DNA of 64,000 nucleotides. Origin: Escherichia virus TH57. The DNA is taken from sequence record MT446422.1; one strand, written 5' to 3'. This document shows positions 1,862 to 14,344 of the stretch, piece after piece. The position numbers and the translations under genes were made by a program. The notes beneath the pieces are model-generated. The model ran no database searches. It was not told where the DNA came from and saw nothing but the letters and a program-made list of their open reading frames with translations. Positions within the stretch are counted from its first letter, which is position 1, and every line of letters starts with the position of its first letter.

Positions 1862-2610
1862 TTTTTCAAGTCCTTCTCAACTAACGATAAAGCAATACCT
1901 CGTTCGATAGGAATCATATGCATGATGCTATCCAGCGAATATTGATTCTTTACCAGCAAGTGGTTAATTTGGTAAAATACAAAGACTTCATCCGGGTTAA
2001 GGATAAGCTTAAAGACGTCAAGCAGGTCGGTGTATTCGGTTTTGTGTTTTTCGCAGCAACCATATGTAAATGGAATATAAACTGAATGCATTTTCTTAAG
2101 GAGCTCTTCGAGACTCTCTATATCAATTGCGTCAATAACCTGCATCTTCGTTTCTTCAGGAAGGTCTTCCCAATTGTATTTTTGTTCTGAGTCTTCGACA
2201 GTCTGGATGGTGTTTAGAACAAGCTCCGACTTATCTTTATATTCCACTTCGGGGAACTTAAATTGTATTTTTATCCCCGCGGTTTCCATTGTTGGATTTG
2301 TCAATGGGCCTTGGCTCATATTAAACAAAGTCTGCTTTGTCTTTTTACATTTTTGACATTCGAACGCTACCGGGACTTTTGTCTTACCGATAGAGGAAGT
2401 GAATACCTTCAAGAATATGTATGGCCTCCATGCTTTCGGATACTCTCCAAAATAATCTTCCAACAGTTCGTCTAATAATTGTTTTTGTTCTTCGACGGGT
2501 TTGTTGTTCATGTCGTTTCGCACAAGCAGTAAATCACGGTAATCAGCGACTGTAAACGGTTTGAAACGATGAACTCCGTCTGGCATTTCGCATCTTACGA
2601 TATTGGCCAT
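1858..2610 (-). CDS. 51: baseplate hub assembly catalyst gp51
   Basis: 250 aa ORF immediately upstream of gp27, same size and position as T4 gp51. Confidence 0.7.
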
Positions 2611-2663
2611 AGAATCCCCTTTTATCTTTATTGATATTTATAAATACAGTAAAGGAGCAAATT

Positions 2664-3287
2664 ATGACTTATGAATTTATTGTCCAAATTAAAAATAAAA
2701 CTATAAATTGTAGGGCTTTTACCTTGCGCGAATACAAAGATTTGCTTCAGGCAAAATTAGAAAAGCGTATGGAACCTGCAATAATTGAACTGCTTAATAA
2801 ATGCACTGATGCTAAAGGGTTAAACAAACAGGAAGCCGAGCTGCTTCTTATTAATCTCTGGGCAAATAGCCTCGGAGCTGTTAACGTCGAGCATACATGG
2901 GTATGTGAGTGCGGAAAGGAACAAGATATTCCTGTGACTATAAGTCGTGCAAGCATCGTGGATGAGTCTGAAGTTATTCGTGATTTCGGGGCATTTAAAA
3001 TTAAATTTCGTTATCCTGGACTGTTTGAAGACGGTGATAAAGGAAAAATGATTGCTTGTTGTATTGAATATATTATCACGGAAGGCGGTGAGCGCATCGT
3101 TGTTGATGACTTAAATGAAGCCGAAATCGAGGACCTGTACAATGCAATTACCCTCGATGATATAAATGCACTAACGGAAGAACTTCTCAAGCCACAGGTC
3201 CAAATGGCTATTCCTATCTCTTGCGAGTGTGGAGCGCATTCTGTCCATGTAATTAAGGGGCTTAAAGAATTCTTTAAGTTTATGTAA
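2664..3287 (+). CDS. 26: baseplate hub subunit gp26
   Basis: ATG at 2664 preceded by AAGGAG; about 207 aa; position between 51 and 25 as in T4. Confidence 0.7.
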   Translation: MTYEFIVQIKNKTINCRAFTLREYKDLLQAKLEKRMEPAIIELLNKCTDAKGLNKQEAELLLINLWANSLGAVNVEHTWVCECGKEQDIPVTISRASIVDESEVIRDFGAFKIKFRYPGLFEDGDKGKMIACCIEYIITEGGERIVVDDLNEAEIEDLYNAITLDDINALTEELLKPQVQMAIPISCECGAHSVHVIKGLKEFFKFM

Positions 3288-3677
3288 ATGAATATAAACA
3301 AAATGTATAGCGATGTGTCTCCTGACTTGTCAATGAGTTGGGATAAAGACGTTGCTAAAGTAACCGGTGCAAGGTCTGTTAAGAACAGTCTTCTGGGTAT
3401 AATCACCACAAGAAAAGGGTCAAGGCCTTTTATGCCTGAATTTGGATGTGATATAAGTAATCAGCTTTTTGAGAATATCACACCATTAATCACAGATACC
3501 ATTAAACGCAACATCGTCTCCGCGGTGCGGAACTTCGAACCAAGGATAAGCAATTTACAGGTTGCAGTTGTCCCTATGTATGATGATAACTCCATTATCG
3601 TAACGGTTCAGTTTAGCATTGTTGATGACCCTGACACCCTCGAACAAATCAGGATTCAGTTAAGTCAAAACGGTTAA
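3288..3677 (+). CDS. 25: baseplate wedge subunit gp25 (gpW/lysozyme-like fold)
   Basis: 129 aa; MNINKMYSDVSPD...SLLGIITTRKGSRPF.PEFGCD matches remembered T4 gp25. Confidence 0.9.
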   Translation: MNINKMYSDVSPDLSMSWDKDVAKVTGARSVKNSLLGIITTRKGSRPFMPEFGCDISNQLFENITPLITDTIKRNIVSAVRNFEPRISNLQVAVVPMYDDNSIIVTVQFSIVDDPDTLEQIRIQLSQNG

Positions 3678-3730
3678 TGCTTTAATTTTATGGCTGTATA
3701 ATGGTTCTAGACCCTTACATTGGATACATT

Positions 3731-4165
3731 ATGAAAACAGAGATTGAATATAAGTTAGAAGTCTTTCAGGATGAGTTAGATGCAGATTTAAAAATTGATG
3801 GTACTCAACTTCAATATGAAACACAAAACAACGTTTTGTTGCATAGCAAATGGTTGAGATTGTATACCAACTGCAAGAAAGAAATAATGCGTCTTGAGAT
3901 TCAGAAGAAAACTGCACTGAAAAAACGGCTAGACCATTATACAGGAAGGGGTGACCCAGGGGAAGAAGTATGCATGGATGTATACGAGAAGTCAGAATTG
4001 AAAACAGTCATGGCCGCAGATTCAAACATACTGAAGATTGATACTTCAATTCAGTATTGGGCACTACTCCAGGACTTCTGTAGCGCTGCATTAGATGGTG
4101 TTAAGTCACGAAGTTTCGCACTTAAACATATGTTAGAAATAAGACAATTCGAGGCAGGCAAGTAA
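3731..4165 (+). CDS. uvsY: recombination mediator UvsY
   Basis: KIDGTQLQYETQNNVLLHSKWL...IQYWALLQDFCSAALDGVKSRSFALKHM matches remembered T4 UvsY; start taken at internal Met MKTEIEYK; MotA-box middle promoter upstream. Confidence 0.9.
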   Translation: MKTEIEYKLEVFQDELDADLKIDGTQLQYETQNNVLLHSKWLRLYTNCKKEIMRLEIQKKTALKKRLDHYTGRGDPGEEVCMDVYEKSELKTVMAADSNILKIDTSIQYWALLQDFCSAALDGVKSRSFALKHMLEIRQFEAGK

Positions 4166-4398
4166 TGCGATATTCTATCGACGATGCGTTTAACCAAGAC
4201 GAAGAGTTCGAAGAAGAAATTAAGTATATGATGAAGGAATGGAAATTGAATCGCGCAGATATTCGTATCTGCGCTGACCACCCTTGTGGTGAAGATGTTA
4301 TCTATGTTAAAGGTAAATTTGCAGGATACATCGATGATGCGTTCTATTCTCACAATATGGGGATAGATACCGGTATGAGATACTTTAAGGAAAATTAA
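4165..4398 (+). CDS. hypothetical protein (position of T4 uvsY.-2)
   Basis: 77 aa ORF overlapping uvsY stop (ATGA junction). Confidence 0.5.
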   Translation: MRYSIDDAFNQDEEFEEEIKYMMKEWKLNRADIRICADHPCGEDVIYVKGKFAGYIDDAFYSHNMGIDTGMRYFKEN

Positions 4399-4509
4399 AT
4401 GAAAAATATTAGTAAGATTCTCGACGAGATGGTTATCTCTGCAAACCGAATAACTGAAATTGTTAATGAGATGAAAGCTCGTGCTGCTATTATGAAGAGC
4501 ACTAAATAG
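4399..4509 (+). CDS. hypothetical small protein (36 aa)
   Basis: ATG immediately after preceding stop; MKNISKILDEMVISANRITEIVNEMKARAAIMKSTK; below ORF-track size cutoff. Confidence 0.3.
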   Translation: MKNISKILDEMVISANRITEIVNEMKARAAIMKSTK

Positions 4510-4537
4510 ATATGTAAGTTTAACTGAGGAGACAATC

Positions 4538-4705
4538 ATGTCAGATAAGATTTGTGTTGTCTGTAAAACTCCAATCGATTCTGCATTGGTTGTGGATACA
4601 GACCAAGGTCCGGTGCATCCGGGCGCCTGTTATAATTATGTTCAGAGTTTGCCAGTTACGGAAAATACAGAAGAGCAACTGAACGAGACCCAACTTTTAA
4701 TTTAG
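4538..4705 (+). CDS. hypothetical small Cys-containing protein (55 aa)
   Basis: GAGGAG 7 nt upstream of ATG; MSDKICVVCKTPIDS...; followed by hairpin terminator. Confidence 0.4.
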   Translation: MSDKICVVCKTPIDSALVVDTDQGPVHPGACYNYVQSLPVTENTEEQLNETQLLI

Positions 4706-4730
4706 CTAGTGTTGTTAACCATTTTTGGTT

Positions 4731-4762
4731 TTGCCCCTTCCTTTTGGTTGGGGCCTTTTTAT
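4731..4762 (+). terminator. rho-independent terminator (GCCCC..GGGGC hairpin + T-run)
   Basis: gccccttccttttggttggggcc followed by tttttattt, at the convergence of the plus uvsY cluster and minus uvsW.1. Confidence 0.55.
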
Positions 4763-4990
4763 TTAGAAATCTTCGTCTTCGTCGTCGTCCATATCCTCAA
4801 GCTCGGCGCGTTTACCGGCAAGAGCATCACGAACACTGATATCATCGGAATCTTTTAGTTCAGCTTCTTTGCTGCGTTTTTTATAATAGCCTTCCAACTC
4901 CTTCAGACCGTCCATGGTCTGACAGGAACCAATCTTAGCCATAAAGCCTTCAATTGATGCTTCGTACATAATTTCTTCAAAGGATTTCAT
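4763..4990 (-). CDS. uvsW.1: UvsW.1 small acidic protein
   Basis: 75 aa ORF immediately downstream of uvsW, acidic C-terminus, same arrangement as T4. Confidence 0.7.
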   Translation of the reverse strand: MKSFEEIMYEASIEGFMAKIGSCQTMDGLKELEGYYKKRSKEAELKDSDDISVRDALAGKRAELEDMDDDEDEDF

Positions 4991-7221: not shown

Positions 7222-8355
7222 ATGGCTTATACCGTAGATATTGCTCCTTTGGCGGCCACAGCCGTTATTGGAGCAACAACCAATTTCACTGCGACCGGTT
7301 CCGGTGCTGCAGCTGAAGGTACCGAATCATTTGTTTGGACCGTTGATGGCGTTCCTCAATCTTCTGTGACTGCTGCAATGGATTATGTTGCTGTTGGTCC
7401 AGCAGGCAGTAAGACTATTAAAGTTGTTGCAACTACCACTCCGGCAGACGGCGAACCAGAAACTGCTGAGGCTGAGACAACTTTAACTATCCAGAATAAA
7501 ACAATGCCGGCAATCACGCTGACTTTAGACCCAGCCTCTGTTACTAAAGAAATAGGACAATCTCAAGTTGTTACAGCTAATATTAGCGGGCAACCAGATG
7601 GAGCGTCCGCTTCTTATGTATGGAAACGAAATGCTGACGTAATCCCAGGGCAAACTGGTAAAACAATCACCATCACCGAATCGGCTGAAGCAAATTATAC
7701 ATTGAACTGTGAAGTTACTGTTTCAGCAACAGATTATGATAATGGCACCGCAACTAAAAGCGCAGTAGTTACCTTTGTTAAGAAAACTATGTCAGGTGTT
7801 TCTGTTACATTAACCCCAGAATCAATTAATGTTCCGGAAGGTACCCCGGCTTCTTTTAAAGCGGATGTAGTCGGCGCACCTAGTGGAGCTACTTTTGCCT
7901 ATTCTTGGAAGAAAGATGGTTCTCCTGTAGTTGGCACCACGGATACTCTAGCAATCGACACAAGCACCGAAGGTTCCCAGGTTATTGAAGTTTCTGTTGT
8001 GGTTTCGGCGACTGATTATGACCCGGCGACTGTCACAAAAACCGGTAATGTAACAGTCACGGCTAAAGTCGCACCAGTTCCAGATGGCGAATTACCTTAT
8101 GTTCATCCATTGCCGGTACGTAATTCAGCTTATATCTGGTGTGGTTGGTGGGTTATGGATGAAATTCAGAAAATGGCTCTTGCCGGGCAAGACTGGAAAA
8201 CCGATGCCCCAGATAGCCCATATTATTTGCACCGATACACACTTCAAAAAATGATTACCGACTATCCAGAGGTTGATGTACAAGAATCTCGTAATGGTCG
8301 AATTATTCATCGCACCGCTTTAGAAGCTGGTATTATATACGATTACGTTTATTAA
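7222..8355 (+). CDS. hoc: head outer capsid protein Hoc (Ig-like domain repeats)
   Basis: 377 aa; repeated Thr/Val-rich Ig-like segments; size and position match T4 Hoc. Confidence 0.8.
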   Translation: MAYTVDIAPLAATAVIGATTNFTATGSGAAAEGTESFVWTVDGVPQSSVTAAMDYVAVGPAGSKTIKVVATTTPADGEPETAEAETTLTIQNKTMPAITLTLDPASVTKEIGQSQVVTANISGQPDGASASYVWKRNADVIPGQTGKTITITESAEANYTLNCEVTVSATDYDNGTATKSAVVTFVKKTMSGVSVTLTPESINVPEGTPASFKADVVGAPSGATFAYSWKKDGSPVVGTTDTLAIDTSTEGSQVIEVSVVVSATDYDPATVTKTGNVTVTAKVAPVPDGELPYVHPLPVRNSAYIWCGWWVMDEIQKMALAGQDWKTDAPDSPYYLHRYTLQKMITDYPEVDVQESRNGRIIHRTALEAGIIYDYVY

Positions 8356-9114: not shown

Positions 9115-10122
9115 ATGTTTAAAAAATACAACAGCCTTGAAAATCACTATAACAACAAGTTCATTGAAAAGATTCGTCTACAAGGCTTCACCAGCGGTGA
9201 ATGGGTAGCTCGTGAAAAGATTCATGGTACCAACTTTTCACTAATCATTGAACAAGACAATGTGACATGTGCGAAACGCACTGGACCTATCCTGCCTGCA
9301 GAAGATTTCTATGGATATGAAATTGTATTAAAGAACTATGCAGATTCTATTAAATCTGTACAGAAACTTTTGCAGGATATTAATTACCAGTCATATCAGA
9401 TTTATGGCGAGTTTGCTGGTACAGGTATTCAGAAGAATGTTGATTACGGTGATAAAGATTTTTATGTATTTGATATCCGCGTTACTAAGGAAGATGGCTC
9501 TGAATCCGTCCTGACTGACACACTTATGGAAGCCTTCTGCATTATTCATAAGTTTAAAGTTGCTCCGCGCCTGGCTACCGGAAGCTTTGAAGACCTTATT
9601 AAGCTCCCTAATGACCTGGATTCTGTGGTCCCTGATTACAATTTTACAGTGGATAACGCAGGATTGACTACAGCAAATACCACTGATTTTGATGCAAAGG
9701 TGGAAGGTAAAGTATTCACTGCTGAAGGATTTGTATTAAAACCTGATGTCCCTGCCTGGTTACCTAACGGCGAGCGTGTAGCGATTAAATGTAAGAACTC
9801 TAAATTCAGTGAAAAGAAAAAGTCTGATAAGCCTATTAAGGCTGCTGTTGTGTTGTCCCAGGAAGACCTGGATATTTTATGGAAGTTCACTGATTATGTG
9901 ACTGTTAACCGCATCAATAATGTTATCAGTAAGATTGGGGAAGTATCGCCGAAGGATTTTGGGAAGGTAATGGGTTTGACTGTCCAGGATATCCTGGAAG
10001 AAGCGGGTCGTGAAGGCCTTGAATTAACCCAGACGGAAAATCCTGTTGAAGTTAAAAAGCAACTTATCGCAAATGTAAGAGAAACATTAAGACATGTTTG
10101 GATTGCATTAATTAGTGAATAA
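9115..10122 (+). CDS. rnlB: RNA ligase 2 (Rnl2)
   Basis: 335 aa; near-identical stretches to remembered T4 Rnl2 ([64 protein letters not shown]). Confidence 0.95.
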
Positions 10123-10125
10123 AAA

Positions 10126-10150
10126 GGGCCGCAAGGCCCTTATTCTTTTT
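10126..10150. terminator. bidirectional hairpin terminator
   Basis: gggccgcaaggccc flanked by A-run and T-run, between convergent rnlB and gene 24 paralog. Confidence 0.7.
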
Positions 10151-11423
10151 CCAGTGGTGGAAGTTTAACACCAAGATAAGAACTCAATTGGCTTTGGTTG
10201 GCCATCTTATCCATATCAGCTCCATCAATAATGCGAGCTTCTTTATCATCTTTAGCAACCGTGTAAGGGTTCGCTGTCAATGCATAACGAGCTAACAGTG
10301 CAACCGTAGGCTGTAAGCTTTCAGGGTCAACAATAACCTTGAATTCCCCAACCGAGGTATCACCCTCATCATCAACTTCGCTAAGCCCTTCCGTATAAGG
10401 CGCATAATACAAAGATGCGACCGTCTGACCCTCGCCCATATCCGCATTTACACCAACAATAACATAATCGCATGGACTATTCATATCTGCATAAAGAGGC
10501 AAACCGTTCTTCAGAACACCATAGGCCAATTCATCCTGGTCTTCCTTTTTCTCAACCCAACCAGAAGCGGCTAAAATAGCTGCACAACGGGAAGAAGCAA
10601 CCGCATATGTACCAGCAAACGAAGTCTGACGTTGAACTGCAGAATTCATTTCACACATATAATAATACAGGGTTCGTGCGCGGTCCTGTGCGTTATCATA
10701 TTTCGGGTCAGTGAGATTCAACACACCTTTTTCAGAAACACCTTGGACCTTGAAGCGGGAACTAACAGTAATAAGGGATTGCAATACATCCTTATTAATT
10801 TCCTCTGCCATTTGAATGCCGAGAATATTATCGATGAAGTCTGTTGCATCGAAACCGTTTGCTTCCAGGTCCTGGGCAAGCTCGACAGTTAAAGAAGTTT
10901 TCAACTTTCTGGATTTAACTTCAGTCTGCCATTTATCGATACGGAAACCAGCTTCAGCAATTTCAGGATGCCCCTTTTCAAATTTATCAGTGAAAGCAGC
11001 ATCTGACATCATTCTTATATGTCCAGCAGCAATGGCTTCAGAAATAACTTCACCTAAATCAGTTTCGAGTGTCCCGGCAAAGGGAGAAGCTTCCAGAACT
11101 TTGAATACAACGCTTTCAAACTGAAACATATCGCCGACTGCATAAGCTTCGTCTTTGTTCGTAAATTCTGGGATATTCTTACGCTCGAACATACCAATCT
11201 GGCCCGCGAATGTTGCTCCACCGAGATAAGTCATTTTATCATCTGGGTTCAGAACACGAACACCATACAGCGCTGCAACAGGCTGGGTAGTTTTCTGTTC
11301 GGCCACGAGTGCTTTAAAAATTCGTTTATTCGTAGCCTGGGTATAAGAAAGCAAATTAGGACGGGCGACCTGGTTGGCCGCCGTTAATGTTGATTCATGA
11401 ATTAGTGCATTAATCTTTTGCAT
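10140..11423 (-). CDS. 24: capsid vertex protein gp24 paralog (second copy)
   Basis: 427 aa; clear similarity to the adjacent gp24 copy and to gp23 fold (C-terminal FKVIVDPESLQP...ANPYTVAKDDKEARIID). Confidence 0.85.
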   Translation of the reverse strand: MQKINALIHESTLTAANQVARPNLLSYTQATNKRIFKALVAEQKTTQPVAALYGVRVLNPDDKMTYLGGATFAGQIGMFERKNIPEFTNKDEAYAVGDMFQFESVVFKVLEASPFAGTLETDLGEVISEAIAAGHIRMMSDAAFTDKFEKGHPEIAEAGFRIDKWQTEVKSRKLKTSLTVELAQDLEANGFDATDFIDNILGIQMAEEINKDVLQSLITVSSRFKVQGVSEKGVLNLTDPKYDNAQDRARTLYYYMCEMNSAVQRQTSFAGTYAVASSRCAAILAASGWVEKKEDQDELAYGVLKNGLPLYADMNSPCDYVIVGVNADMGEGQTVASLYYAPYTEGLSEVDDEGDTSVGEFKVIVDPESLQPTVALLARYALTANPYTVAKDDKEARIIDGADMDKMANQSQLSSYLGVKLPPLEKE

Positions 11424-12704
11424 TTACGCCTCATAAATGATTGGCGGAAGTTTAACACCGAGCAGATAAGACATGTTGCTCTGACCGGCCATTAAATCCA
11501 TATTGGTTGCATCGATAATACGAGCTTCTTTATCGTCTTTAGCAACGGTGTAAGGGTTGGCTGAAAGTGCATATCGAACCATCAAGGAGATAGATGGCTG
11601 CAAGCTGTCTGGGTCCACAATGACCTTAAACGCACCTACGTGTTCTTCATCATCTAAGTCCAGGCCTTCGGTATAAGGAGCATAGAAGATTGAGCCTACG
11701 ACTTCGTTTCCGCCGTAATTTTCTTTAACGCCAACGGTTACATAATCCAATGGACTGTTAACATCACAGAATACAGGGAGGCCATTAATCAAATAACCGT
11801 ACGCTGTTTCAGGAAGCCATTGTTCATCTTCTGGTTTATGTTTCAGCCACCCAGAACCGGCCAGCATAGCAGCAACACGGCTAGAGGCAACAACAAAGGT
11901 ACCGGAATAAGATGTAGTTTTCTGAATTTCGGAGTTCATTTCGCAAACCAGTTCATACAGTTTACGTGCGCCTTCTGGAGCTGCATCATATGTTAAATCG
12001 ATGGTGCCATTGTCAGAAACGCCAGTTACTTTATAACGCTTGGAAACGGTAATAAGAGACTGAAGAACATCTTTGTTAATTTCATCTGCCATAATAGTAG
12101 CAAGCAGGTCTTCCAGGAAAGCAGGAGCATTAAAGCCATTTGCTTCCATATCCTGAGCAAGTTCAACAGTTAATGCAGTTTTCAATTTACGGGATTTAAC
12201 AGGAGCATTCCATTTATTAACCTGGAATACAGCATTGCTAATTTCAACATCACCGGCTTCGAATTTTTCGGTGTGTGCAGCATCAGGAACTAAACGAATA
12301 GTCGATGCAATAAGACCTTCTTGCAGAACATCAGATAACACTGTTTCTGTGGTCGATGCAAATGGATTATCAACCAGAGCTTTATAAACGATATTCTGGA
12401 ATTTAATGTATCCGCCTTTAGCTACGGCCTGAGTTGGGGTTGTAAATTCCGGAATAGTTGTACGGTCTTTTGAACCAACTTCACCACCATAAGTAGCACC
12501 AGTCTGGAAACTGAATTCATTATCAGGAGTAAGATATTTAACACCGTACAGAGCCGCAACTGGCTGGTTAGTACGTTGTTCAGCGATAATATCGCGGTAA
12601 ATCAATTTGGTTGTAGCACGGGTCAAAGCAACAAGATTCGGGCGGCCCAAGGAGTTGCTGGTAGTAATAGTTGACTCGCGCAGTAATTTGTTAATCTTTG
12701 CCAT
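11424..12704 (-). CDS. 24: capsid vertex protein gp24
   Basis: start at MAKINKLLREST matching remembered T4 gp24 N-terminus; about 426 aa. Confidence 0.9.
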   Translation of the reverse strand: MAKINKLLRESTITTSNSLGRPNLVALTRATTKLIYRDIIAEQRTNQPVAALYGVKYLTPDNEFSFQTGATYGGEVGSKDRTTIPEFTTPTQAVAKGGYIKFQNIVYKALVDNPFASTTETVLSDVLQEGLIASTIRLVPDAAHTEKFEAGDVEISNAVFQVNKWNAPVKSRKLKTALTVELAQDMEANGFNAPAFLEDLLATIMADEINKDVLQSLITVSKRYKVTGVSDNGTIDLTYDAAPEGARKLYELVCEMNSEIQKTTSYSGTFVVASSRVAAMLAGSGWLKHKPEDEQWLPETAYGYLINGLPVFCDVNSPLDYVTVGVKENYGGNEVVGSIFYAPYTEGLDLDDEEHVGAFKVIVDPDSLQPSISLMVRYALSANPYTVAKDDKEARIIDATNMDLMAGQSNMSYLLGVKLPPIIYEA

Positions 12705-12743
12705 TTGCGCTTTCCTTTTGTGATATACTTTATTTATTCCCAA

Positions 12744-12768
12744 TAAAAAAGGGACTCCGAAGAGTCCC
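12744..12768 (-). terminator. rho-independent terminator between genes 23 and 24
   Basis: gggactcttcggagtccc hairpin followed by ttttttatt on minus strand. Confidence 0.7.
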
Positions 12769-12784
12769 TGAAATTTATTAAGGA

Positions 12785-14344
12785 TTAAATTCCCTTAACA
12801 TATACACGTCTAAAGTAACCGTTCAAGCCGAGGCTGTTAACGATGTCCGGCATGCCGTTCTGAATGCGCTTGGTCGGAGCCTGAGCAGCAGGGTCAGCAA
12901 ACGGGTTGATACCGATACCGTAACGGGTTTTGAAGCCCATAACCGGCTGGAAGTTTTTCGGGTCAGAGCCACGCAGCGGGGTCAGTGCAACATATGGTGC
13001 GTAGTAGATACCAGCATCCATTTCGTTAGCGCCTTTGTAACCGATGGTGAAATAGTCTGCACGAGCATACTGGTCGATATAGACACGGTATTTGCCACCC
13101 AGAACACCGGCGAACACAGCTTTAGTGGTATCAACGTTGAAACCTTTACCCAGACCCTGAGCAGCATAACTAACAGAAGTATCAACAGCAGCCAGTACGT
13201 TAACTACGTTACGGGAAGCGATGATGAAGTTACCTGCACCACGACCGGTCTGACGAGCGATTTCAGCGGCTTCTTTATCAATCTGGAACAGTAAAGCTTT
13301 GAAGCTTTCACCAGCCCAACGAGCACCACGGATATCAATCGGGTCCTGGAAGTCAAACACACCAGCTTTAGCGCCAACGGTGTTGGTCATACCAGATTTA
13401 CCAACCTGTGCGGAGTAGTTAATCCAATCGATAACTTCACGGTTGATTTCCAACATAATTTCGGTAGCCAGAATACCACTCAATTCGGCATCAGCATCCA
13501 TACCGTGAACAGCACGCAGGTCCTGTGCCAATTCGATAGAGTAGCTTGCTTTCAGCTGGCGAGATTTAGCTTCGATAACTTGTTTATCGATACGGAAGCC
13601 CATTTCGTTCCACGGGTTATCAGAGGAACCGTTAAAACCTTCTTGAAGTTCGGCGATAGAGGTAGCCATACCTTCAGCCAGTTCAGCCAGTTTGCCAGCT
13701 TCGAGCAGTTTGGTAACTTCAGCATCCAGTTTAGCAGCGTCAGTAGCGCCAGCATCAACGGTTACAGCTTCAACAGCCTGGAAGTGCGCGGAACCGGTTG
13801 CTTCGAAGAAGTGAGAATAAATTTTACCAACTTCCAGAACTTTGCTTGCAGCCAGAGCTTCAAAAGTCTGAGCAGCGCCCTGACCAGAGAACATAGCGTT
13901 CGGAGCATACATCGGGTGGAAAGCTTCTTTAGCACCGGCAGCTACAGGGTCTTTACCGTAAACTGCGCGCAGGGCAAATACCTGGCCAGTCGGGTTGTTC
14001 AGAGGCTGTACGCCACAAATATCAAACGCAATCAGATGCGGGATAGCACGACGAACCATGCCCATAACTGCCGGCCCAATCTGAGTTACTGCACCAGAGG
14101 TCTGGCCAGCAGCGATATTGGTAGCATCATAACCATGGTCACCACCGATTTCAGCTTCGGTCAAGAAAGAACCAAATGCTTCGGAGATTTTTTCGTCACG
14201 ATATTCAGGAGCGGTTAGAATATCTTGTTCCTGGTTTTCAAAGATTTTAGCGATGATAGCTTGTTTGGAAGCACCAACGATTTCCGGAAGAGCTTCGTTT
14301 TCCAACAGAGCGGACCATTTTTGAACTAATGCATTCTTTTTCAT
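12785..14344 (-). CDS. 23: major capsid protein gp23
   Basis: 519 aa; strongly matches remembered T4 gp23 (MGMVRRAIP.LIAFDICGVQP, AELQEGFNGSSDNPWNEMGFRIDKQVIEAKSRQLKA). Confidence 0.95.
   Translation of the reverse strand: MKKNALVQKWSALLENEALPEIVGASKQAIIAKIFENQEQDILTAPEYRDEKISEAFGSFLTEAEIGGDHGYDATNIAAGQTSGAVTQIGPAVMGMVRRAIPHLIAFDICGVQPLNNPTGQVFALRAVYGKDPVAAGAKEAFHPMYAPNAMFSGQGAAQTFEALAASKVLEVGKIYSHFFEATGSAHFQAVEAVTVDAGATDAAKLDAEVTKLLEAGKLAELAEGMATSIAELQEGFNGSSDNPWNEMGFRIDKQVIEAKSRQLKASYSIELAQDLRAVHGMDADAELSGILATEIMLEINREVIDWINYSAQVGKSGMTNTVGAKAGVFDFQDPIDIRGARWAGESFKALLFQIDKEAAEIARQTGRGAGNFIIASRNVVNVLAAVDTSVSYAAQGLGKGFNVDTTKAVFAGVLGGKYRVYIDQYARADYFTIGYKGANEMDAGIYYAPYVALTPLRGSDPKNFQPVMGFKTRYGIGINPFADPAAQAPTKRIQNGMPDIVNSLGLNGYFRRVYVKGI

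Follow-up and report, generated by a model that had tools for sequence, protein, structure and literature searches.

How does a T4-like phage come to carry two adjacent genes for its capsid vertex protein, when T4 itself has one? The question is raised by Escherichia virus TH57 (record MT446422.1), in which the 64,000-nucleotide stretch analysed here (the window) has, in its list of open reading frames (ORFs), a head-to-tail pair of intact gp24-type genes on the minus strand, designated g24 copy 1 (g24-I, upstream) and copy 2 (g24-II, downstream). The initial annotation of this DNA implied a lineage-specific duplication of a T4-like single gene 24. Our comparisons argue against that polarity: the split between the two copies most likely came before the ancestor shared by T4-type gp24 and copy 1, and the single gene 24 of T4 is most likely a derived state in which copy 2 has been lost. 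As a genome feature the pair is already known. It has been annotated in relatives for years, as 24(1)/24(2) in VR7, as 24a/24b in JS98 and as 'capsid vertex protein I/II' in VR20 and CJ20, and the JS98 genome papers reportedly note the gp24 duplication. What is new here is that the paralogues are probably old, that the T4 single gene is probably derived, and that the module is probably mobile.

Both products belong to the Gp23/Gp24 family with the HK97 fold, scoring 328.3 bits (copy 1) and 327.6 bits (copy 2) against PF07068 (cut-off 24.4) and matching phrog_138 with E-values of 7e-131 and 3e-123, respectively, so that their first description as two adjacent minus-strand gp24-like ORFs holds. 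They are of the gp24 and not the gp23 type: both align with T4 gp24 over their full length, have its size (~427 amino acids, aa), lack the 65-residue gp23 propeptide and share only 28-29% identity with the neighbouring gp23. Their genes lie directly after g23 in the late head gene run, in the order g21-g22-g23-g24-I-g24-II and convergent with rnlB. The place after g23 and the convergent rnlB are shared with T4 gp24 (PDB 1YUE, 5VF3, 7VS5), as are the full-length alignment and a gp21 cleavage motif at residue 10. Residues 1-424 of copy 2 align to residues 1-423 of the T4 gp24 structure 1YUE (E-value 2e-148). The upstream copy, previously matched to T4 gp24, is indeed its orthologue, with 69.6% identity (95.8% to VR7 24(1) and 89.2% to JS98 24a), whereas copy 2 is 55.5% identical to T4 gp24, 98.6% to VR7 24(2) and 95.8% to JS98 24b. 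The two copies are 57% identical to each other over their full length (E-value 1e-176), and copy 1, at ~70%, is therefore closer to T4 gp24 than to its own neighbour.

The gp21 prohead protease removes the first 10 residues of T4 gp24 (PMC9958956). The corresponding motif reads LLRE↓ST in copy 1 of the window, as in T4, and LIHE↓ST in copy 2. Its core, (L/I)-x-E↓S, is kept in all 26 of the aligned paired sequences, the copy 2 variants being LI[HQYR]E↓ST or LLRE↓ST.

Both copies look functional. The initial annotation had considered that exact re-translation might expose the second copy as a pseudogene, but copy 2 is an intact full-length ORF in every genome and contig sampled, as is copy 1. 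Within the clade, copy 1 has a ratio of nonsynonymous to synonymous rates (dN/dS) of 0.05-0.07 and copy 2 one of 0.02-0.05. In the core genera copy 2 is conserved more strongly than copy 1 (against F48, copy 2 is 80.2% and copy 1 72.5% identical); the reverse applies in the group of Erwinia phage FBB1. Between the copies, the synonymous distance dS is ~1.7, near saturation, and identity within a genome is 52-57% in all eight lineages compared. The diverged downstream paralogue nevertheless keeps long identical stretches, as had been observed, among them FKVIVDP.SLQP and ANPYTVAKDDKEARIID. Gene conversion was rejected as their source, the proportion of synonymous differences in sliding windows being 0.45-0.84 throughout. 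Because there is no tract of low dS, and because T4 gp24 has the same stretches, they are better attributed to constraint than to recent conversion.

The age of the split was addressed with neighbour-joining trees (200 bootstraps), built from the whole alignment and also from each third of it. The alignment and phylogeny against gp24 and gp23 that had been proposed as a check place the two copies, both of gp24 type, in separate clades with 100% support: one contains only copy 2 sequences, and the other unites copy 1 with the gp24s of T4, JK45, Moon, KM16, Entb_43 and PEi20. Bootstrap support for monophyly of copy 1 plus copy 2 was 0% with the full-length alignment and no higher than 1.5% with any third. 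With deeply diverged pairs added, the tree resolves into two mirrored clades. Copy 2 divides into the FBB1 group and the core group (100%), and a copy-1 superclade (96%) has the form (FBB1-group copy 1, ((T4, Moon, Karamvirus), (PEi20, core copy 1))), with 93% for the inner group. Because of this topology, the single-copy T4-type genes appear nested among the copy 1 genes of pair-bearing phages. The window itself fits the two-gene module: its copy 1 belongs to the core copy-1 clade and its copy 2 to the copy-2 clade (100% each), and both stand on one strand in the fixed order I-II.

Seven positions have a state that unites core copy 1 with the T4 group and that neither FBB1-group copy 1 nor the JD18 group has; copy 2 has it at none of the seven. 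Both copy-2 subclades keep the ancestral residue at five positions whose polarity is fixed by the outgroup, and they have in common 13 copy-2-specific substitutions (synapomorphies). Group-specific fixed differences number 24 for copy 2 and 7 for copy 1, the stem of copy 2 being long.

Topologies were also compared by likelihood, in a self-written calculation that covered 22 taxa and 420 sites and used gamma rates under two substitution models. The best were the ancient-split topologies, and the alternatives were worse by 20 to 254 log-likelihood (lnL) units. Placing copy 2 just inside FBB1-group copy 1 cost 20 to 26 units (Kishino-Hasegawa, KH, p 0.02-0.03), placing it as sister to (PEi20, core copy 1) 41 to 53 units (KH p 0.001-0.0025), and placing it as sister to core copy 1 60 to 73 units (KH p 2-5e-4), with no support by resampling of estimated log-likelihoods (RELL support 0). 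Two independent duplications, in the FBB1 and the core groups, were 227 to 254 units worse (KH p <1e-13) and were rejected. Long-branch attraction was likewise rejected as the cause of the copy 2 placement, which held in the per-third trees, at the polarised sites, with stem-breaking sequences included and in the likelihood tests. Nor do the single-copy genes appear to be chimeras produced by unequal crossover: the C-terminal third of the T4-type genes still groups with copy 1 (0.865), and the JD18 group has none of the 13 copy-2 synapomorphies.

How far the pair extends was examined by a translated search, which found a gp24 homologue in 1,417 phage records, at 1,535 matching places. A match of at least 80% identity to copy 2 occurs in 106 of these 1,417 records (~8%), and every record of this band has two matching places among the matches listed. 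Over the 2.9-kb region the window is 92-97% identical in DNA to Gaprivervirus (CJ20, VR20, VR7 and others) and ~81% to Dhakavirus (JS98, Bp7, IME281). Further pairs are found in Marfavirus (at least 22 records), in Salmonella phage CF-SP2 and other phages labelled Gelderlandvirus, in Kanagawavirus CIP9 and Kosakonia phage 305, and in Erwinia phage FBB1 and related metagenomic contigs. A search of a large protein database (5.8 billion proteins) added copy-2-like proteins at 66-69% identity, and a copy-1-like gene lies directly upstream in all seven of the most divergent cases whose context was read. A copy-2-type gene on its own was found neither among the 1,417 phage records nor in the 5.8-billion-protein search. 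Because the split appears to predate the T4 gp24 lineage and copy 2 is never found alone, T4 with its single gene more likely shows the derived condition. In T4 and PEi20 no remnant of copy 2 was detected; the gap between g24 and rnlB is only 29-34 bp.

The FBB1-like group has two extra same-strand genes after copy 2 and, where the contig reaches that gene, before rnlB (L023 4890-6427; L025 2676-4506; L027 2634-4140; L028 4326-5841; L029 1469-3482), both of which the window lacks. One of them encodes ~330-420 aa, with faint collagen-repeat matches in two cases; the other encodes mostly ~165 aa and is longer in L025 and L029.

The features of the locus are collected in Table 1. The initial annotation had given its extent as 10140-12743. 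The 10140 end stands, but 12743 is only the limit of the mechanical ORF (11424-12743, 439 aa), which runs from an in-frame upstream TTG. The ATG at 12704 is the biologically sensible start of copy 1. An AGGA Shine-Dalgarno sequence precedes it, and AAGGAAAGCGC upstream of this ATG is conserved in CJ20, VR7 and JS98. The gp23 of the window is 98% identical to that of VR7 and CJ20. RnlB, annotated at the same place in VR7, JS98 and T4, is 69% identical to its T4 counterpart.

Table 1. Features at the g24 locus of the window (positions in the 64,000-nucleotide stretch)
Feature	Position	Strand	Description
g24 copy 1 (g24-I)	11424..12704	-	426 aa + stop; starts MAKINKLLREST
g24 copy 2 (g24-II)	10140..11423	-	427 aa + stop
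g23, major capsid protein	12785..14344	-	519-aa ORF; PF07068 409 bits; upstream gene, late head gene run
rnlB, RNA ligase 2	9115..10122	+	335-aa ORF; convergent neighbour downstream of the pair
Terminator-like hairpin after g23	12750..12769	-	AGGGACTC-TTCG-GAGTCCCT then TTTTTATT; from terminator scan and sequence
Late-promoter-like box AATAAATA	12731..12738	-	one mismatch against the T4 late consensus TATAAATA; putative function
Shine-Dalgarno AGGA of copy 1	12713..12716	-	read from the sequence
Shine-Dalgarno GAGG of copy 2	11429..11432	-	within the last codons of copy 1; junction sequence GAGGcgTAAATG
G+C-rich hairpin with T-runs on both strands	10124..10141	both	from terminator scan; terminator-like for the g24 pair and the convergent rnlB

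At the junction of the two genes, the TAA of copy 1 (11426-11424) is followed directly by the ATG of copy 2 (11423-11421), with a spacer of 0 nt and the GAGG 5 bases upstream. In the 13 pairs with both ends read, the spacing of stop and start ranges from a 4-nt overlap to a 1-nt spacer. The paralogue had been described as abutting gene 24 with no obvious promoter, and this agrees with what we find: exact TATAAATA is absent between 10140 and 12800, including before either g24 copy. The whole window has 19 exact TATAAATA boxes, whereas chance would give 5.4; most of them lie on the minus strand ahead of head and tail genes (mainly 14-33 kb).

The spacer between g23 and copy 1 (12705-12784) measures 80 bp. 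In CJ20, VR7 and JS98 it is ~360 bp longer and contains a small opposite-strand ORF (VR7ORF190c/JS98 orf173) and another terminator. In these three phages consensus TATAAATA aligns with AATAAATA of the window, in which the junction that lacks the ~360 bp alters the first base of the box. The terminator between genes 23 and 24 was said to be retained. A hairpin does stand there, but the spacer has been remodelled and the hairpin is unlike the one at the same place in these close relatives.

Farther along, a 377-aa repeat-rich ORF (7222-8355, plus strand) occupies the place of hoc in T4 and JS98. It has an ESRNG motif, which in Hoc has been described as capsid-binding (PMC10385173). VR7 has a collagen-repeat ORF on the opposite strand near the corresponding place.

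The g24 locus does not share its history with its flanks. In the gp23 tree, CF-SP2 groups with Moon and KM16 (100%) and PEi20 with Dhakavirus and Gaprivervirus (98%). In the RnlB tree, T4 and JK45 group with Dhakavirus and Gaprivervirus (100%). In the g24 tree, T4 groups with Moon and Karamvirus (100%), and all pair-bearing copy 1 genes fall together (100%). Because the g24 tree conflicts with both others, it appears to sort by one-gene or two-gene status and not by either flank. Both states occur within Kanagawavirus, where CIP9 and 305 are paired and PEi20 is single.

Some local cases were seen as well. In CF-SP2, gp23 (L005 562-2121) groups with Moon and KM16 and the g24 pair (2218-4781) with Dhakavirus and Gaprivervirus, and because of this difference a recombination junction probably lies between its g23 and g24. 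JS98 copy 1 groups with that of UP19 (100%) and JS98 copy 2 with Gaprivervirus copy 2 (97-98%), which suggests a recombination breakpoint inside or between the two JS98 genes. RnlB identity to the window is 71% for VR7, 98.8% for CJ20 and 86.5% for JS98, and rnlB is by this measure mosaic within Gaprivervirus. Homing endonuclease genes lie in the g23-g24 gap of T4 (segD, L003 1739-2410), JK45 (L017 468-1127) and UP19 (L020 4588-5247), and upstream of g24 in fHe-Yen9-01 (L009 1-1420) and AM101 (L011 1-1401). Such genes promote local gene conversion, and it is plausible that they drive exchange of the vertex module. In our reading, the locus holds a vertex module that is exchangeable and comes in a one-gene and a two-gene form; the former would go back to the copy-1 side of the latter, with loss of copy 2 as the simplest route.

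How might the two proteins act? The pair would be transcribed late as one unit, from the weakened box AATAAATA, by read-through from g23, or by both. Copy 2 is likely translated by coupling to copy 1, because the stop of copy 1 and the start of copy 2 abut and copy 2 has its own GAGG. Codon bias towards g23 usage is 0.49 for copy 1 and 0.40 for copy 2, a weak difference that only hints at somewhat higher expression of copy 1. Both products would enter the prohead as penton subunits, then be trimmed by gp21, and could between them make up the 11 vertices other than the portal vertex, in homopentamers of two kinds or in mixed pentamers. The pair would be inherited as a unit, with T4, Moon, Karamvirus and PEi20 keeping the copy-1-type gene and most likely having lost its partner, and the whole module would move between genera by recombination. 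We give this explanation as a whole, namely a two-gene T4-type vertex module of old paralogues that both serve as penton subunits, with copy 2 lost from the single-gene phages, a probability of roughly 0.7.

Some indication of how the two types might differ comes from 16 positions that are conserved within each type yet different between them, eight of which lie in residues 25-57. In T4, gp24 extends its residues 11-20 onto the gp23 hexamer beside it, and within a pentamer residues 26-29 of one gp24 subunit pair with the I-domain linker of the next (PMC9546572). Because the between-type positions are concentrated in and just after this N-terminal contact segment, it is probably the contacts with partners, and not the fold, that set the two types apart. 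Two kinds of homopentamer would fit such a difference, as would defined heteropentamers, and the heteromeric or specialised vertex suggested in the initial annotation is plausible. A more specific proposal is that two different pentons occupy defined vertices (for example, apical or cap versus portal-side ring) or defined places within a pentamer, the two-penton design being ancestral for much of the Tevenvirinae and the one-penton capsid of T4 a secondary simplification. We offer it tentatively and with a good deal of doubt.

Several points weigh against the explanation that we prefer. The trees are neighbour-joining trees, the rate matrix in the likelihood calculation is approximate, and the KH test becomes liberal if the best tree is picked after the fact. 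The position of copy 2 just inside FBB1-group copy 1 is only marginally rejected, and the gp24s of JD18, Tegunavirus and Serratia phages are not firmly placed relative to the split (40-49% bootstrap; likelihood does not separate the options). The sequences do not distinguish loss of copy 2 in T4-type lineages from a lateral spread of that gene or of the module as a whole. The stronger conservation of copy 2 holds in the core clade only, and the promoter box upstream of copy 1 is imperfect in the window. The 55 gp24* subunits of T4 are structurally alike (PMC9546572), which leaves no obvious need for a specialised vertex, and our literature searches found no proteomic, genetic or structural data for either product of pair-bearing phages.

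Among the other explanations, a recent lineage-specific tandem duplication of a T4-like single gene, with a fast-diverging downstream copy, would account for two abutting genes on one strand, and the long copy 2 stem (24 against 7 fixed differences) could in principle produce a long-branch artefact. It is nonetheless highly improbable. The two copies are never monophyletic beyond 1.5% in any third, copy 2 is ancestral at the five polarised positions and derived at none of the seven shared by core copy 1 and the T4 group, the corresponding topology is 60-73 lnL units worse, the copies stand at dS ~1.7, and the pair of the deeply diverged FBB1 group agrees in order and junction. A different account makes copy 2 a xenologue, the sole vertex gene of a diverged T4-like lineage that was captured beside g24 during co-infection and then spread laterally, alone or with copy 1, so that T4 never had it. 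The position of copy 2, not within the clade that T4-type gp24 forms with copy 1 but near the weakly placed single gp24s of JD18, Tegunavirus and the Serratia phages, speaks for it, as do the conflict of the g24 tree with both flanking genes, the different nearest relatives of the two JS98 copies and the homing endonuclease genes beside g24 in several phages. We consider it unlikely, since no genome or contig in either search carries copy 2 only, the subtrees of copy 1 and copy 2 are mirror images (FBB1 group versus core), the T4-type genes being nested between on the copy-1 side, and one early origin followed by losses is simpler than repeated insertions at an identical junction.

Other accounts concern function rather than origin. 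Copy 2 may not be a permanent vertex subunit, but may act only in assembly (for example, in vertex nucleation or in triggering of the gp21 protease) or replace copy 1 conditionally, by temperature or host. A protein of the copy-1 type alone suffices for all vertices in T4, and the protease is believed to be activated when gp24 attaches to the vertices of the prohead (PMC9958956). The lower g23-like codon bias of copy 2 points in the same direction. VR5, VR7 and VR20 are said to have been described as low-temperature phages, but phages from gut and clinical sources, among them JS98 and Marfavirus, have the pair too. In copy 2 the gp24 architecture is complete, with the protease site and the C-terminal blocks common to T4 gp24; its constraint in the core clade is as tight as or tighter than that of copy 1, and the putative tight translational coupling suggests joint rather than conditional expression. 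We regard this role as quite unlikely. That copy 2 is a decaying or non-functional duplicate, or an artefact of annotation, can be practically dismissed. Its only point is that copy 2 lacks a promoter of its own, and it is refuted by conservation: the ORF is intact wherever sampled, has its own Shine-Dalgarno sequence and a dN/dS of 0.02-0.05, and has orthologues in ~106 phage records.

A role as a decoy in defence was also considered. T6 gp24 is needed to trigger type IV Thoeris, which the phage escapes through A380V (PMC13243611). This idea was rejected, because both copies keep A380 and because wild-type gp24 restores immunity in trans (PMC13243611), so that an extra copy would not hide the trigger.

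The closest counterparts of the locus are the pairs of Dhakavirus and Gaprivervirus (JS98 24a/24b, IME08 24b, VR7 24(1)/24(2), and I/II of VR5, VR20, VR25, VR26 and CJ20), which have the same genes, the same order between g23 and rnlB and the same abutting junction; copy 1 of the window is 89-97% and copy 2 96-99.5% identical to them. Unlike CJ20, VR7 and JS98, the window lacks ~360 bp of the g23-g24 spacer and has another hairpin and an imperfect late-promoter box. Unlike T4, it has a second gene, whose product differs at the 16 within-type-conserved positions mentioned above. A looser parallel is found in the alpha-carboxysome, in which CsoS4A and CsoS4B are adjacent paralogous pentameric vertex proteins and the need for two is unclear. 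The likeness lies in two adjacent vertex paralogues of an icosahedral shell; fold and system are unrelated, and it is a resemblance only. Within the phage itself, g23 and g24 also form a tandem-duplicated HK97-fold capsid gene pair, and such duplication with specialisation of one copy is the accepted origin of gp24 (PMC9958956, PMC10580926). Unlike the split between g24-I and g24-II, that between gp23 and gp24 is far older (28-29% identity) and gave a division of labour between hexamers and pentamers.

The finding adds to a very well-studied capsid system a second vertex protein that is highly constrained and long co-inherited with the first. It bears on studies in which gp24 is taken to trigger a defence system (type IV Thoeris, PMC13243611) or to determine stability (PMC10580926). 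It also reverses the usual polarity: the single gene 24 of T4 would probably be the product of a loss, and the vertex module of these phages may be viewed as an exchangeable cassette of one or two genes.

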